23,727 nt of DNA from a virus (lineage: Duplodnaviria > Heunggongvirae > Uroviricota > Caudoviricetes), in IMG/VR virus record IMGVR_UViG_2671180283_000006. The stretch is one strand, 5' to 3'. The notes under the pieces are model-generated. The model worked only from the letters and a program-made list of their open reading frames with translations. It made no database searches and was not told where the DNA came from. Both the position numbers and the translations under genes were made by a program. The number at the start of each line of letters is the position of its first letter. The stretch's first letter is position 1. This document shows positions 6,227 through 23,727 of this stretch, in pieces.

Positions 6227-8326
6227 ATGGGTTTTTCATCAGCCCGAAATTTGGGAAGGGACATATCGGCAGGATTTTCCCCACCACGTCGCATGCCGAT
6301 TTCGGAGGCTGTTAAAAAATTCATGCGTGTTCCCAAGGGGGCTGGTAACTCGGTGCCATGGGATCCTGAACTGACACCCTACATCATTGAGCCCATGAAC
6401 TGCCTGGCATCGCGTGAATACGATGCGGTGATTTTTGTTGGTCCTGCGCGAACAGGGAAGACCATTGGTCTGATCGATGGATGGATTGTCTATACCATCG
6501 TTTGCGATCCTTCGGACATGCTCGTTGTGCAGATGACCGAAGATAAGGCCCGCGAGCATTCTAAAAAGCGCCTTGACAGAACGTTCAGAAGCAGTGCGGC
6601 GGTAAAGAAAAGAATGAGTCCACGTCGTAACGACAATAATGTCCATGATAAGACGTTCAGGGATGGCTCGTTCCTTAAAATTGGTTGGCCCTCGGTCAAT
6701 ATTATGTCGTCGTCGGATTACCGGTTTGTCGCCTTAACCGATTACGACCGTTTTCCGGAGAATATCGACAGCGAGGGTGATGGTTTCTCCCTGGCCTCAA
6801 AACGTACCACCACATTTATGTCCGCCGGGATGACTCTGGTGGAGAGCTCGCCGGGACGTGACATCTGCGACAGCAAATGGCGACGTAAGTCGCCTCATGA
6901 AGCGCCACCGACGACTGGTATTCTTTCCCTTTACAATCGTGGTGACCGCCGCCGCTGGTACTGGCCATGTCCGCACTGCGGTGAATATTTTCAGCCAGCT
7001 ATGGATGCCATGACCGGCTACCGTAATGAACCGGATCCCTTTAAAGCCAGTGAGGCGGCGTATCTACTTTGCCCGCACTGCAGCGGCATTATCACTGCGG
7101 AGAAAAAGCGTGAGCTCAATAGTGCAGGAGTCTGGTTGCGTGAAGGTCAGGTCATTGATCGTAACGGCAACGTTTCCGGTGAACCGCGCCGCTCCCGTAT
7201 CGCCAGTTTCTGGATGGAAGGGCCAGCTGCTGCGTATCAGACCTGGGCGCAACTGGTTTACAAATTACTGACTGCAGAACAGGAGTATGAAGCGACAGGA
7301 AGCGAAGAAACACTCAGGGCGGTTATCAACACCGACTGGGGATTGCCTTATCTTCCTCGTGCCAGCATGGAGCAACGAGAAAGTGAACTGCTTGAGCAGC
7401 GGGCAGAGCCAGTTCCTTCCCGCAGTGTGCCGGATGGCGTTAATTTCCTTGTGGCGACAGTGGATGTGCAGGCGGGACGTCATCGCCGTTTTGTGGTTCA
7501 GGTAACGGGCTATGGCAGCCGTGGCGAACGCTGGATTATTGATCGTTACAACATCACGCAGTCATTGCGCAGTGACTGCGACGGGGAGAGCCAGCGAATT
7601 GATCCGGCCAGCTATCCGGAAGACTGGGATGTCCTGCTGACGGATGTTTTTCATAAAAGCTGGCCGCTGGCCTCCGATCCTTCTCAACAAATGCGACTGA
7701 TGGCAATGGCGGTGGACTCCGGCGGTGAAGACGGGGTCACTGATAATGCCTATAAATTCTGGCGTCGTTGCCGTCGTGATGGCCTTGGTAAACGTATTTA
7801 CCTGTTTAAGGGCGACAGCATCCGGCGCGCAAAACTGATCAGCCGTACATTCCCTGATAACACCGGACGAACGGGCCGCCGGGCGCAGGCCGCAGGTGAT
7901 GTGCCGCTCTGGCTTCTTCAGACGGATGCCCTGAAAGACCGGGTGAATAACGCGTTATGGCGTGACTCGCCAGGTCCAGGCTATGTGCATTTCCCTGACT
8001 GGCTGGGGAGCTGGTTTTACGACGAACTGACGTATGAAGAGCGGAGCAGTGACGGGAAATGGAGTAAGCCGGGTCGCGGTGCCAACGAAGCTTTTGACCT
8101 GATGGTGTATGCCGAGGCTCTGGTCATTCTGCATGGATACGAAAAGATCCGCTGGCCGGATGCACCGGAGTGGGCGAGCCGGGAAACCTGGCTGGAGTGT
8201 GTCCCGGACAGTACCGAACCGTCACCCTCACCGGAACCGGTACCCACGCCTGTTAAAAAACAAAAACGGAAGAAAACAGTAACTGACGATGTTAACCCCT
8301 GGCTGACTTCCGGAGGATGGTTATGA
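6227..8326 (+). CDS. A: Terminase large subunit (lambda gpA family)
   Basis: 699 aa; Walker A VGPARTGKT; zinc motif WYWPCPHCGEYFQ matching lambda gpA ACPHCGE; GGAGG RBS. Confidence 0.9.
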   Translation: MGFSSARNLGRDISAGFSPPRRMPISEAVKKFMRVPKGAGNSVPWDPELTPYIIEPMNCLASREYDAVIFVGPARTGKTIGLIDGWIVYTIVCDPSDMLVVQMTEDKAREHSKKRLDRTFRSSAAVKKRMSPRRNDNNVHDKTFRDGSFLKIGWPSVNIMSSSDYRFVALTDYDRFPENIDSEGDGFSLASKRTTTFMSAGMTLVESSPGRDICDSKWRRKSPHEAPPTTGILSLYNRGDRRRWYWPCPHCGEYFQPAMDAMTGYRNEPDPFKASEAAYLLCPHCSGIITAEKKRELNSAGVWLREGQVIDRNGNVSGEPRRSRIASFWMEGPAAAYQTWAQLVYKLLTAEQEYEATGSEETLRAVINTDWGLPYLPRASMEQRESELLEQRAEPVPSRSVPDGVNFLVATVDVQAGRHRRFVVQVTGYGSRGERWIIDRYNITQSLRSDCDGESQRIDPASYPEDWDVLLTDVFHKSWPLASDPSQQMRLMAMAVDSGGEDGVTDNAYKFWRRCRRDGLGKRIYLFKGDSIRRAKLISRTFPDNTGRTGRRAQAAGDVPLWLLQTDALKDRVNNALWRDSPGPGYVHFPDWLGSWFYDELTYEERSSDGKWSKPGRGANEAFDLMVYAEALVILHGYEKIRWPDAPEWASRETWLECVPDSTEPSPSPEPVPTPVKKQKRKKTVTDDVNPWLTSGGWL

Positions 8327-8535
8327 ATCAGAATGATATTGAAGCCATGATTCAGCGTTATACGGAAGCTGAAATGGCGGTGCTGGACGGAAAATCCGTC
8401 ACTTTTAATGGTCAGCAGATGACCATGGAAAACTTATCTGAGATCCGGCAGGGGCGGCAGGAGTGGGAGCGCCGCCTTGCGGCTCTGATTACACGACGAC
8501 GGGGGCATCCCGGGTACCGGCTGGCGAGGTTCTGA
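8323..8535 (+). CDS. W: Head-tail joining protein (lambda gpW-like)
   Basis: About 70 aa; C-terminal RRRG motif and overall pattern like lambda W; ATG overlaps the terminase stop (ATGA); GGAGGA RBS. Confidence 0.7.
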   Translation: MNQNDIEAMIQRYTEAEMAVLDGKSVTFNGQQMTMENLSEIRQGRQEWERRLAALITRRRGHPGYRLARF

Positions 8536-10043
8536 TGGCAATTCTTGATGATGTGATTGGCGTTTTTTCACCTGGATGGAAAGCGGCAAGGCTGCGTTCC
8601 CGTGCGGTGATCCAGGCTTATGAGGCCGTAAAAACGACGCGGACACATAAAGCCCGACGGGAGAGCCGAACTGCCGACCAGTTAAGCCAGTACGGGGCCG
8701 TGTCGTTACGTGAGCAGGCCCGTTACCTTGATAACAACCACGATCTGGTCATTGGTGTATTTGACAAGCTGGAAGAACGGGTGGTGGGGAAAAACGGGAT
8801 TATTGTCGAGCCACATCCGGTATTACGCAATGGGGCCATTGCCCGTGATCTGGCAGCGGAGATTCGCACCCGATGGAGTGAATGGTCTGTCAGTCCGGAG
8901 GTCACCGGGCAGTTTACCCGTCCGATGCTGGAACGTCTGATGCTGCGTACCTGGCTGCGCGATGGTGAGGTGTTTGCCCAGATGGTTTCCGGGCGCATAA
9001 ACAGCTTGACGCCTTCTGCCGGTGTTCATTTCTGGCTGGAGGCGCTCGAGCCGGACTTTATTCCCATGACCAGTGATGAGAGCAACAGGCTGAATCAGGG
9101 CGTGTTTGTTGATGACTGGGGGCGTCCCGAAAAATATCTGGTGTATAAAAGCCGTCCCGTATCCGGGCGGCAGATGGAAACCAAAGAAGTGGATGCAGAG
9201 CGAATGCTGCATCTTAAATTTGTTCGCCGTCTGCACCAGATGCGCGGGACGTCTTTGTTGTCCGGTGTGCTGATCCGCCTCAGTGCTCTGAAAGAGTATG
9301 AAGATTCTGAGCTGACTGCAGCAAGGATCGCCGCTGCTCTGGGGATGTACATCCGGAAAGGCGACGGACAGAGCTATGAAACGGATGGTAATGACAGCAA
9401 GGAGAATGAACGCGAGCTTACCATTCAGCCAGGCATTATTTACGACGATCTGAAACCCGGCGAAGAAATCGGAATGGTGAAGTCGGATCGCCCCAATCCT
9501 AACCTTGAAACTTTTCGTAATGGTCAGTTGCGTGCCGTGGCTGCGGGCAGTCGTCTGAGTTTTTCCAGTACAGCGCGCAACTATAACGGCACTTACAGCG
9601 CCCAGCGTCAGGAGCTGGTTGAATCTACTGATGGCTACCTGATCCTGCAGGACTGGTTTATTGGTGCCGTCACCCGCCCGATGTACCGTGCCTGGCTGAA
9701 ACAGGCTGTGGCATCCGGTGTTATCAGGCTACCCCGCGATCTGGACCGATCTTCACTGTATACCGCGGTGTATTCCGGACCGGTGATGCCGTGGATTGAC
9801 CCTGTTAAGGAGGCTGAGGCCTGGAAAATTCAGATTCGTGGTGGAGCGGCGACAGAATCAGACTGGGTACGTGCAGGTGGTCGTAATCCGGATGATGTCA
9901 AACGTCGGCGCAAGGCCGAAATTGATGAAAACCGCAAGCTGGATCTGGTATTTGATACCGATCCGGCCAGTGATAAAGGAGGCAGCAGTGCCGCAACGAA
10001 ACGACAGGAGCCGCAGCACACCGACGACCAGTCCGAAGAATAA
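8535..10043 (+). CDS. Portal protein
   Basis: About 502 aa from ATG overlapping the W stop (TGATG); placed between W and the protease-capsid gene. Track ORF start 8463 is an upstream extension overlapping W. Confidence 0.8.
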   Translation: MAILDDVIGVFSPGWKAARLRSRAVIQAYEAVKTTRTHKARRESRTADQLSQYGAVSLREQARYLDNNHDLVIGVFDKLEERVVGKNGIIVEPHPVLRNGAIARDLAAEIRTRWSEWSVSPEVTGQFTRPMLERLMLRTWLRDGEVFAQMVSGRINSLTPSAGVHFWLEALEPDFIPMTSDESNRLNQGVFVDDWGRPEKYLVYKSRPVSGRQMETKEVDAERMLHLKFVRRLHQMRGTSLLSGVLIRLSALKEYEDSELTAARIAAALGMYIRKGDGQSYETDGNDSKENERELTIQPGIIYDDLKPGEEIGMVKSDRPNPNLETFRNGQLRAVAAGSRLSFSSTARNYNGTYSAQRQELVESTDGYLILQDWFIGAVTRPMYRAWLKQAVASGVIRLPRDLDRSSLYTAVYSGPVMPWIDPVKEAEAWKIQIRGGAATESDWVRAGGRNPDDVKRRRKAEIDENRKLDLVFDTDPASDKGGSSAATKRQEPQHTDDQSEE

Positions 10044-20643: not shown

Positions 20644-23600
20644 ATGGGTAAAGGAAGCAGTAAGGGGCATACCCCGCGCGAAGCGAAGGACAACCTGAAG
20701 TCCACGCAGTTGCTGAGTGTGATTGATGCCATCAGCGAAGGGCCGGTTGAAGGTCCGGTGGATGGATTAAAAAGCGTGCTGCTGAACAGTACGCCGGTGC
20801 TGGACAGTGATGGGAATACCAACATCGCCGGTGTCACGGTGGTGTTCCGGGCTGGTGAGCAGGAGCAGACTCCGCCGGAGGGATTTGAATCCTCCGGCTC
20901 CGAGACGGTGTTGGGTACGGAAGTGAAATACGACACGCCGATCACCCGCGCCATCACGTCGGCAAACATCGACCGACTGCGCTTTACCTTCGGTGTGCAG
21001 GCACTGGTGGAAACCACCTCAAAGGGGGACCGGAATCCGTCGGAAGTTCGCCTGCTGGTTCAGATACAGCGTAATGGTGGCTGGGTGACGGAAAAAGACA
21101 TCACCATTAAGGGCAAAACCACCTCGCAGTATCTGGCCTCGGTGGTGGTGGATAACCTGCCGCCGCGCCCGTTTAATATCCGGATGCGCAGAATGACGCC
21201 GGACAGCACCACAGACCAGCTGCAGAACAAAACGCTCTGGTCGTCATACACCGAAATCATCGATGTGAAACAGTGCTACCCGAACACGGCACTGGTCGGC
21301 GTGCAGGTGGACTCGGAACAGTTCGGCAGCCAGCAGGTGAGCCGTAATTATCATCTTCGCGGGCGCATTCTGCAGGTGCCGTCGAACTATAACCCGCAGA
21401 CGCGGCAATACAGCGGTATCTGGGACGGAACGTTTAAGCCAGCATACAGCAACAACATGGCCTGGTGTCTGTGGGATATGCTGACCCATCCGCGCTACGG
21501 CATGGGGAAGCGTCTCGGTGCGGCGGATGTGGACAAATGGGCGCTGTATGTCATCGGCCAGAATTGCGACCAGTCGGTGCCGGATGGCTTTGGTGGCACG
21601 GAGCCGCGCATCACCTGTAATGCCTGGCTGACCACACAGCGCAAGGCGTGGGATGTTCTCAGTGATTTCTGCTCGGCGATGCGCTGTATGCCGGTATGGA
21701 ACGGGCAGACGCTGACGTTCGTGCAGGACCGACCGTCGGATAAGGTGTGGACCTATAACCGCAGTAATGTGGTGATGCCGGATGATGGCGCGCCGTTCCG
21801 CTACAGCTTCAGTGCCCTGAAGGACCGTCATAATGCCGTTGAGGTGAACTGGATTGACCCGGATAACGGCTGGGAGACGGCGACAGAGCTTGTGGAGGAC
21901 ACGCAGGCCATTGCCCGTTACGGTCGTAACGTCACGAAGATGGATGCCTTTGGCTGTACCAGCCGGGGGCAGGCACACCGCGCCGGGCTGTGGCTGATTA
22001 AAACGGAACTGCTGGAAACGCAGACCGTGGACTTCAGCGTGGGTGCCGAAGGGCTTCGCCATGTACCAGGTGATGTCATTGAAATCTGTGATGATGACTA
22101 TGCGGGGATCAGCACCGGCGGGCGCGTGCTGGCGGTGAACAGCCAGACCCGGACGCTGACGCTCGACCGTGAAATCACGCTGCCATCCTCCGGTACCACG
22201 CTGATAAGCCTGGTTGACGGAAGTGGCAATCCGGTCAGCGTGGAGGTCCAGTCCGTCACCGACGGCGTGAAGGTAAAAGTGAGCCGTGTTCCTGACGGCG
22301 TTGCCGGATACAGCGTGTGGGGGCTGAAGCTGCCGACGCTGCGCCAGCGCCTGTTCCGCTGCGTGAGTATCCGTGAGAACGACGACGGCACGTATGCCAT
22401 CACCGCCGTGCAGCATGTACCGGAAAAAGAAGCCATCGTGGATAACGGGGCGCACTTTGACGGCGACCAGAGCGGCACGGTGAATGGTGTCACGCCGCCA
22501 GCAGTGCAGCACCTGACTGCCGAAGTCACCGCAGACAGCGGGGAATATCAGGTGCTGGCGCGCTGGGACACGCCGAAGGTGGTGAAGGGGGTGAGCTTTA
22601 TGCTTCGCCTGACCGTAACAGCGGACGACGGCAGTGAGCGGCTGGTCAGCACGGCCCGGACGACAGAAACCACATACCGCTTCAGGCAGCTGGCGCTGGG
22701 GCGTTACACGCTGACGGTCCGGGCGGTAAATGCGTGGGGACAGCAGGGCGATCCGGCATCGGTATCGTTCCGGATTGCCGCACCGGCAGCGCCGTCGCAG
22801 ATTGAGCTGACACCCGGGTATTTTCAGATAACCGCCACGCCGCATCTTGCGGTTTATGATCCGACGGTACAGTTTGAGTTCTGGTTCTCGGAAAAGCGGA
22901 TTGCGGATATCAGGCAGGTTGAAACCAGCGCGCGTTATCTTGGTACGGCGCTGTACTGGATAGCCGCCAGTATCAATATCAGGCCGGGCCATGATTATTA
23001 TTTTTACGTTCGCAGTGTGAATACCGTTGGCAAATCGGCATTCGTGGAGGCTGTTGGTCGGCCGAGTGATGATGCTTCCGGCTATCTGGATTTTTTCAAA
23101 GGCGAGATAGGGAAAAGCCATCTGGCTCAGGAGTTGTGGACGCAGATTGATAACGGTCAGCTTGCGCCTGACCTGGCTGAAATCAGGACGTCCATTACGG
23201 ATGTCAGCAATGAAATCACACAGACCGTCAATAAGAAACTGGAAGATCAGAGTGCAGCGATCCAGCAGATACAGAAGGTTCAGGTTGATACAAATAATAA
23301 CCTGAACAGCATGTGGGCTGTGAAGCTGCAGCAGATGCAGGACGGACGCCTTTATATCGCGGGTATCGGTGCCGGTATTGAGAATACGCCAGCAGGAATG
23401 CAGAGTCAGGTGCTGCTGGCGGCAGACAGGATTGCGATGATTAATCCTGCAAATGGCAACACAAAACCGATGTTTGTTGGTCAGGGTGATCAGATATTCA
23501 TGAATGAAGTGTTCCTGAAATATCTGACGGCTCCCACCATTACCAGCGGCGGTAATCCTCCTGCATTTTCCCTGACACCGGACGGAAAGCTGACCGCTAA

Positions 23601-23652
23601 AAATGCAGATATCAGTGGCAGTGTGAATGCGAACTGTAACCGGCTCATTTAA
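20644..23652 (+). CDS. J: Central tail fibre / host specificity protein J, C-terminally truncated relative to lambda J
   Basis: 1002 aa; near-identical to lambda J from [24 protein letters not shown] through ...[14 protein letters not shown], then ends as CNRLI-stop, whereas lambda J (about 1132 aa as recalled) continues with the receptor-binding domain. Confidence 0.9.
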
Positions 23653-23727
23653 ACCGTCTGGTCTGTTTCCTCCGGCTCTACAAAAATAATGTCCATCATT
23701 TTTAATGGACACTATCGTATGAAACAC

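Follow-up and report, generated by a model that had tools for sequence, protein, structure and literature searches.

A disrupted J gene in a lambda-like Escherichia coli prophage, with an IS66-family terminus at the break

INTRODUCTION

In phage lambda, the C-terminus of the tail protein gpJ is the receptor-binding domain, whose loops insert into LamB and trigger opening of the tail (PMC11101478). Among lambdoid prophages, insertion sequences (IS) are a usual and recognised class of defect, and recombination with sibling prophages can still mobilise or repair the defective ones (PMC2669165). Elements of the IS66 family carry the genes tnpABC and duplicate 8 bp of target DNA (PMC6778807). An IS66-family insertion in a lambdoid J gene is an already known kind of phenomenon. 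Here, we examine the J gene of a tailed-phage sequence (Caudoviricetes), IMG/VR record IMGVR_UViG_2671180283_000006, whose full length of 23,727 nucleotides we call the window. J is cut short near the end of the window, and an earlier note, made from the sequence alone, had suggested either a defective prophage or a swapped receptor-binding module. We conclude with high confidence that, in a lambda-like E. coli prophage, a 2.7-kb IS66-family element (tnpA-tnpB-tnpC, ISCro1-family) transposed into codon 998 of J and lies in the orientation of that gene.

Compared with lambda gpJ (PDB 8IYK, 8XCG, 8XCJ, and 8XCK), the J of the window has the same domain order, but the C-terminal receptor-binding domain has been lost. 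The gene is a mosaic relative of its lambda counterpart, and since the two receptor-binding domains share only 46% identity, LamB is not established as the receptor of this prophage. Set against IS66-family elements of the Enterobacteriaceae (ISCro1-family, with IS679, ISEc8, and ISEc22 as relatives), the first 92 bp of the element are identical to 2,699-bp copies, and the complete copies likewise have GTAA-type imperfect repeats, 8-bp duplications, and the genes tnpA (HTH), tnpB (TnpB_IS66), and tnpC (DDE_Tnp_IS66). There is no difference in kind from known IS66-family copies; the insertion site alone is peculiar to the isolate. The defect is of the same class, an IS insertion, as those in the IS-inactivated lambdoid prophages of E. 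coli O157 Sakai, and rescue by recombination is possible (PMC2669165).

RESULTS

J is contiguous up to an IS terminus

The open reading frame (ORF) of J runs from 20644 to 23652, encodes 1002 amino acids, and is the last large forward ORF in the program-made ORF list of the window. Homology to J ends at base 23635 and unrelated DNA begins at 23636, as judged from both the megablast boundary and a base-level alignment. When bases 23200-23727 were searched by megablast, 4,487 of the 5,426 complete E. coli genomes gave matches, and in the majority of the top-ranked records the alignment ended at query base 436, equivalent to window position 23635; phage records also lost the match there. The final 92 bases were covered by four records only, beside a gene annotated as "IS66-like element accessory protein TnpA." Up to 23635, the window and the closest intact, 1,159-aa J are identical at 3433 of 3436 bases. 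In the base-level alignment, the window follows an intact J (locus L002) through ...GTGAATGCGAACT (...GCGAACT) and then turns to the IS terminus, at the point where the intact gene reads on ...AACTCCGGGACGCTCAAC. The AACT before the junction is J's own AAC T(CC), and the GTA after it comprises the first three, invariant bases of the IS. Because every IS copy starts GTAACCGG in any context, J is contiguous to the junction without deletion: the gene is intact up to 23635, and the terminal repeat of the element begins at 23636.

The ORF closes with five foreign residues, CNRLI, which come with the stop codon from the IS terminal repeat, read from 23636. The earlier note had described this ending and its stop at 23652, in agreement with the ORF list and the sequence. 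The breakpoint that it placed at about 23637 is real, and its position was off by 1 to 2 bases at most. Its estimate that about 130 residues had been lost was too low: the break lies at residue 969 of the 1132 in lambda J, which leaves 163 missing (162 when measured against the 1,159-aa J).

The terminus belongs to a multicopy IS66-family element

It was the search for IS ends proposed in the earlier note that gave the decisive answer, an IS66-family terminus. The terminal 92 bases of the window are identical (92/92) to an IS end, and the best copies in the database score E = 1e-41, so that the break far exceeds what chance would produce. Searched alone, bases 23630-23727 matched 5,307 places on the chromosomes and plasmids of 1,736 of the 5,426 E. 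coli genomes, always adjoining an IS66-type tnpA; in the E. coli copies examined, tnpA, tnpB, and tnpC all adjoin this left end. The same end occurs in 1,398 plasmid records and beside 73 distinct flanks among prophage contigs, and three copies lie in unrelated surroundings, within silC, a helicase gene, and a plasmid shufflon. With the same sequence in unrelated genomic contexts, the element is multicopy and mobile.

Its assignment to the IS66 family combines the published description (PMC6778807) with direct measurements on copies. In base-level alignments, each copy opens GTAACCGGCTCATTTAAACC regardless of the preceding DNA. Complete copies are 2,699 bp long (2,698 bp in locus L005) and finish in the reverse complement of GTAAGCGACTCGTCAGAACCGT. 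All four complete copies are flanked by 8-bp target duplications (CGCTCAAC, GCCGAAAT, TACGAAGT, and GATCGAAC). In the complete copy of locus L003, Pfam profiles identified TnpA as HTH_Tnp_1 (1.8e-14), TnpB as TnpB_IS66 (4.7e-40), and TnpC as DDE_Tnp_IS66 (2.5e-103) with zf-IS66, LZ_Tnp_IS66, and DDE_Tnp_IS66_C; NCBI labels the transposase "ISCro1 family." The left repeat in the window and the ends of complete copies begin GTAA(G/C)CG, and GTAA-type ends are reportedly typical of the IS66 family. Of tnpA in the window's own copy, no more than the initial 3 (or 13) codons fall inside the window.

A second contig carries the predicted right junction

The window is the complete contig CYDQ01000043.1 (23,727 bp) of the draft assembly GCA_001283605.2, and in an exact protein look-up the truncated J protein was on this contig only. 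Because the whole draft contig ends inside a multicopy repeat, 92 bp into it, the end of the window is technical and not biological. We infer that the contig stops because a short-read assembler could not resolve the repeat. In IMG/VR prophage contigs, 19 of 79 copies of the IS end likewise run out 55-92 bp into the element, where the stored stretch itself ends, as is usual when short-read assemblies break in repeats. The other end of the contig is intragenic as well, with only residues 247-349 of a DUF968 protein (window 1-311). Both window ends are assembly breaks, probably in sequence common to lambdoid prophages.

From the anatomy of the IS, we predicted the right junction as a 33-mer consisting of the IS right end, TGCGAACT, and the continuation of J. 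The predicted order is the right end ...GAGTCGCTTAC, then TGCGAACT, then CCGGGACGCTC; the right end ...GACGAGTCGCTTAC is expected directly before TGCGAACT CCGGGACGCTCAAC. IMG/VR yielded a single instance of this 33-mer, an exact match located at the end of the 4,740-bp contig L007. On its minus strand, L007 has 90 bp of the IS right end, TGCGAACT, and CCGGGACGCTCAAC... up to the J stop codon, and this 3' remnant of J contains ...GGTAAGGCTTTCCCGCGGGAC... Two genes follow the J stop, one for a lom homologue of 199 aa and the other for a side tail fibre (stf) of 1,132 aa. When window bases 20644-23635 were joined to the part of L007 that follows one copy of the duplication, the result was an open J of 1,159 aa; compared with the intact protein of strain 504838, two residues differ.

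The two contigs break 92 bp (window) and 90 bp (L007) inside the IS. Within a collection of 15 billion proteins, the stf protein of L007 was on exactly one contig (4,740 bp) and the J of the window also on one (23,727 bp), counts that support a common origin only indirectly. We regard it as very probable that L007 comes from the same genome as the window or from a clonal one. Two further comparisons did not bear on this link. The 131-aa J remnant in L007 (CTX23552.1) shares its prefix with the window's J (CTX11878.1), about 11,700 numbers apart, which neither proves nor excludes a common genome; and the window-specific pair of J variants C20736/G20746 matched at least 120 viral contigs and was uninformative. 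The remnant itself is an ORF that follows the IS at 4155-4550 on the minus strand of L007. It starts with GTG at J residue 1029, exactly where the Pfam domain Ig_GpJ_C begins. GenBank lists it as a protein in its own right ("fibronectin type III domain-containing protein"); expression in that form is improbable.

These data are consistent with a simple insertion. The IS66-family element would have landed in J codon 998 and duplicated the 8-bp TGCGAACT; the reading frame of J enters the terminal repeat and stops after five codons. If L007 is from the same or a clonal genome, the 3' fragment of J, lom, and stf would lie 2.7 kb downstream. With the IS and one copy of the 8-bp duplication taken out, the joined sequence again encodes an intact J.

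The receptor-binding domain is missing from the truncated protein

The J of the window aligns to residues 1-835 and 838-972 of lambda J, with an E-value of 0 against the lambda J chain 8iyk_J, and its last ~47 residues before the break are identical to lambda J. The near-identity to lambda J described in the earlier note thus holds for residues 1-835 but not for residues 836-997 (Table 1), and the continuation of lambda J that it gave, NSGTLSNVTIAENCTINGTL, does match that protein. Pfam searches of the window's J identified FNIII-A_GpJ, Phage-tail_3, Ig_J, Ig_J_second, and a nearly complete Phage_Tail_Tip (872-999). The C-terminal receptor-binding domain, PF12421 Ig_GpJ_C, was not found in the 1002-aa ORF of the window. 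It is complete (profile 1-135/135, E = 1.7e-38) in the missing 162-aa segment reconstructed from L007, and in the relatives L002 and L129, J runs 162-163 residues past the break. The truncated protein keeps the tail-tip hub, the FNIII and Ig domains, and the central-fibre prism and lacks the whole C-terminal receptor-binding domain, and the gene reads as a disrupted J, not a functional one.

Separately, J has a sharp mosaic boundary at codons 835-865 (23146-23236), at the boundary between FNIII and the alpha-helical shaft. This suggests that the distal fibre was exchanged in its entirety as a module.

Alternatives to a simple insertion

Several observations weigh against a simple insertion. 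Only 92 bp of the IS are in the window, and the rest of the copy and its right flank are not directly seen. L007 is not tied to assembly GCA_001283605.2. The exact left junction was absent from the 5,426 complete E. coli genomes and from a set with one genome per species, so that no independent closed genome carries it, and it was not found in IMG/VR, though L007 is there.

The alternative that survives best, itself unlikely, places the IS at the same site but not as a simple insertion: recombination between two IS copies, by deletion or inversion, would have left the 5' part of J beside an IS with unrelated DNA on its other flank, and the 3' part of J, lom, and stf would be lost or located elsewhere in the genome. 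IS66 copies mediate such deletions, which are marked by mismatched 8-bp flanks (PMC6778807). The window, moreover, stops inside the IS with the right flank out of view, and the link between L007 and the assembly is unproven. However, one contig, L007, does carry exactly the expected 8-bp duplication together with the remainder of J, and it is as rare as the window junction; breaks 92 and 90 bp into the IS are what would be expected of two halves of a single assembly break. We consider it very improbable that the junction of J and IS is an assembly chimera and that J is intact in the isolate. The contig does come from a draft assembly, with the junction 92 bp from its end, but a chimera would not yield a reciprocal junction with a perfect 8-bp duplication at the predicted base, and J gives way to the IS at exactly the base where the terminal repeat starts.

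We give almost no credence to a small in-frame deletion joining AAC TGT A(CG) to unrelated DNA at 23637, or to a naturally short J of ~1000 aa with a swapped or separate receptor-binding module, since, even though AACTGTAC is present 33 bp further on in lambda J, GTAACCGG... is the invariant IS start in every context and only a contiguous AACT is needed from J, the DNA past the break is an IS end with tnpA and not a receptor-binding gene, and thousands of genomes match J up to the break while J goes on in L002 and L129. The earlier note had matched AACTGTA to lambda's AAC TGT ACG; the motif is present in lambda J (nt 2941), but the alignment is wrong and nothing has been deleted. Its swapped module likewise finds no place in the sequence, where the DNA after 23635 consists of the IS terminal repeat, a leader, and the start of tnpA, with no receptor-binding or fibre gene. 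Transposition of the IS66-family element into J codon 998 is the explanation that we adopt below.

TABLE 1 Features of the window around the break in J, and correspondence of J to lambda J
Feature	Position in window	Strand	Evidence or comparison
5' part of gene J (tip attachment/host specificity protein)	20644..23635	+	codons 1-997 and first base of codon 998
Target site TGCGAACT, 8 bp, expected duplicated beyond the IS	23628..23635	+	8-bp duplications in 4/4 complete copies; right junction in L007
J-IS fusion tail, TGT AAC CGG CTC ATT TAA (CNRLI-stop)	23635..23652	+	sequence, ORF list, junction alignment
IS left end, first 92 bp of 2,699-bp IS66-family element, same orientation as J, cut by contig end	23636..23727	+	92/92 identical to complete IS in L003
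Left terminal inverted repeat GTAACCGGCTCATTTAAACCGT, imperfect	23636..23657	+	16/22 positions match right end GTAAGCGACTCGTCAGAACCGT; ends compared in L001, L003-L005
Palindrome TGTCCAT-CATTTTTA-ATGGACA (N8 loop), within IS just 5' of conserved tnpA start	23690..23711	+	in minimum-energy fold
First three tnpA codons, ATG AAA CAC = ATGAAACAC	23719..23727	+	start maps of IS copies
J residues 1-835			lambda J 1-835, 95.8% identity
J residues 836-997			lambda J up to 969, ~55% identity, 28-residue insertion
J residues 998-1159 (missing in window)			lambda J 970-1132, 46% identity

A second, independent insertion in J

The same IS, in the same orientation and in the same part of J, is present in E. 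coli Z1322HEC0005 (NZ_CP148578.1), where the gene is annotated as a gpJ pseudogene. There, in the region 6437-9157 of locus L001, the 2,699-bp IS interrupts J and is directly followed by the 3' remnant of J, lom, and stf. The J of Z1322HEC0005 is 98.7% identical to that of the window (2952/2992 bases), but the insertion is 14 bp further downstream and has the duplication CGCTCAAC in place of the window's TGCGAACT. On these sequences, the two insertions are independent events. Their 14-bp closeness could be a coincidence or could reflect a mild local preference.

Across the 5,426 E. coli genomes, megablast placed the IS end within ~760 bp 3' of this J segment in four complete genomes only. In prophage contigs, the element has inserted variously in terminase, lysis genes, J, the spacer between J and lom, and lom, and the only pattern among the 73 distinct sites is a weak one (G at -8, A at -4 and -3). 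A target preference of nnCGAAnT, which we had drawn from the first five duplications, was rejected on the basis of that weak pattern. Distal J may nevertheless be a preferred or selected landing site for IS66 elements, such that loss of receptor binding recurrently domesticates lambdoid prophages while their cargo genes are kept, but we hold this reading to be improbable.

State of the prophage

We checked the genes of the window by transfer of annotation from the closest complete relative, strain 162.2 (98% coverage, 99.6% identity). J is the sole disrupted gene in the window, and the contig end truncates the DUF968 gene at base 1. The other 25 complete genes are full length, with 98.6-100% amino acid identity, and span RusA, Q, the lysis genes, terminase, portal, capsid, tail tube, tape measure, M, L, K, and I. 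With a J that lacks its receptor-binding C-terminus, particles could probably not adsorb, and the prophage would make no infectious ones, unless the defect is repaired by recombination of J with another lambdoid prophage or by rare loss of the IS. The suggestion of a defective prophage is thus supported, insofar as function can be read from the sequence.

Three other observations concern this prophage and its relatives. Four tandem tRNA genes (Met-CAT, Lys-TTT, Thr-TGT, and Gly-TCC) lie at 1663-1972, just 3' of the Q antiterminator gene; in the closest complete relative (L129), one tRNA-Met gene and TolA-like cargo genes take their place. An 827-aa ORF antisense to J (21244-23727, minus strand) crosses the junction between J and the IS. 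Since two unrelated stretches of DNA contribute to it, the simplest reading is a shadow ORF of J, not a gene. Finally, chicken E. coli GPEC strains have nearly identical copies of the late region (99.0-99.2%) that carry other IS66-family elements (ISEc8 or ISEc22). These copies list the tape measure gene twice, which suggests an IS insertion into that gene in the GPEC lineages.

A conserved palindrome precedes tnpA

The earlier note had also pointed to a hairpin and to a possible new start near the edge of the window. Both are present (Table 1): the hairpin folds, but it is an internal feature of the IS, and the start codon belongs to the IS gene tnpA. The 92-nt leader of the IS folds modestly better than shuffled sequences (z = -2.3). 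We compared diverged IS66-family left ends (L130-L134), which included Shigella and E. coli at 92%, Pantoea and Enterobacter at ~75%, and Providencia. The block TGTCCATCATTTTTAATGGACACTATCG is kept base for base in these ends, the loop included, while its flanks drift. As far as Pantoea and Providencia, what is conserved as sequence is the palindrome TGTCCAT-N8-ATGGACA together with CTATCG (23690-23718). An RNA hairpin supported by covariation was considered and set aside, since the sequence itself, loop included, is conserved and offers no covariation for or against. The palindrome is a conserved element of the IS leader, either an operator-like site or a hairpin for translational control; that it is an operator or translational control element so far undescribed for the IS66 family we hold to be improbable.

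Four of the five diverged copies have ATG, ATG, GTG, or TTG as the codon at 23719, and the annotation pipeline PGAP starts the Pantoea tnpA at the equivalent position. The RefSeq start of tnpA in L003 and L004 maps to an in-frame ATG at 23689, 10 codons before 23719. The ATG at 23719 is most likely the true start of tnpA, and because this start codon is conserved, the RefSeq start, at the equivalent of 23689, appears to be 10 codons too early.

DISCUSSION

The short J of this prophage is a clean negative for a new receptor-binding architecture: what the window contains is a routine IS insertion next to a break in a draft assembly. For annotation, CTX11878.1, named "Host specificity protein J," is a truncated fusion of J with the IS, and the prophage should be scored as adsorption-defective. 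More generally, a truncated gene beside a contig end should first be tested for an IS terminus. The insertion provides a further example of IS-mediated decay of a lambdoid prophage, potentially reversible through recombination with sibling prophages (PMC2669165).

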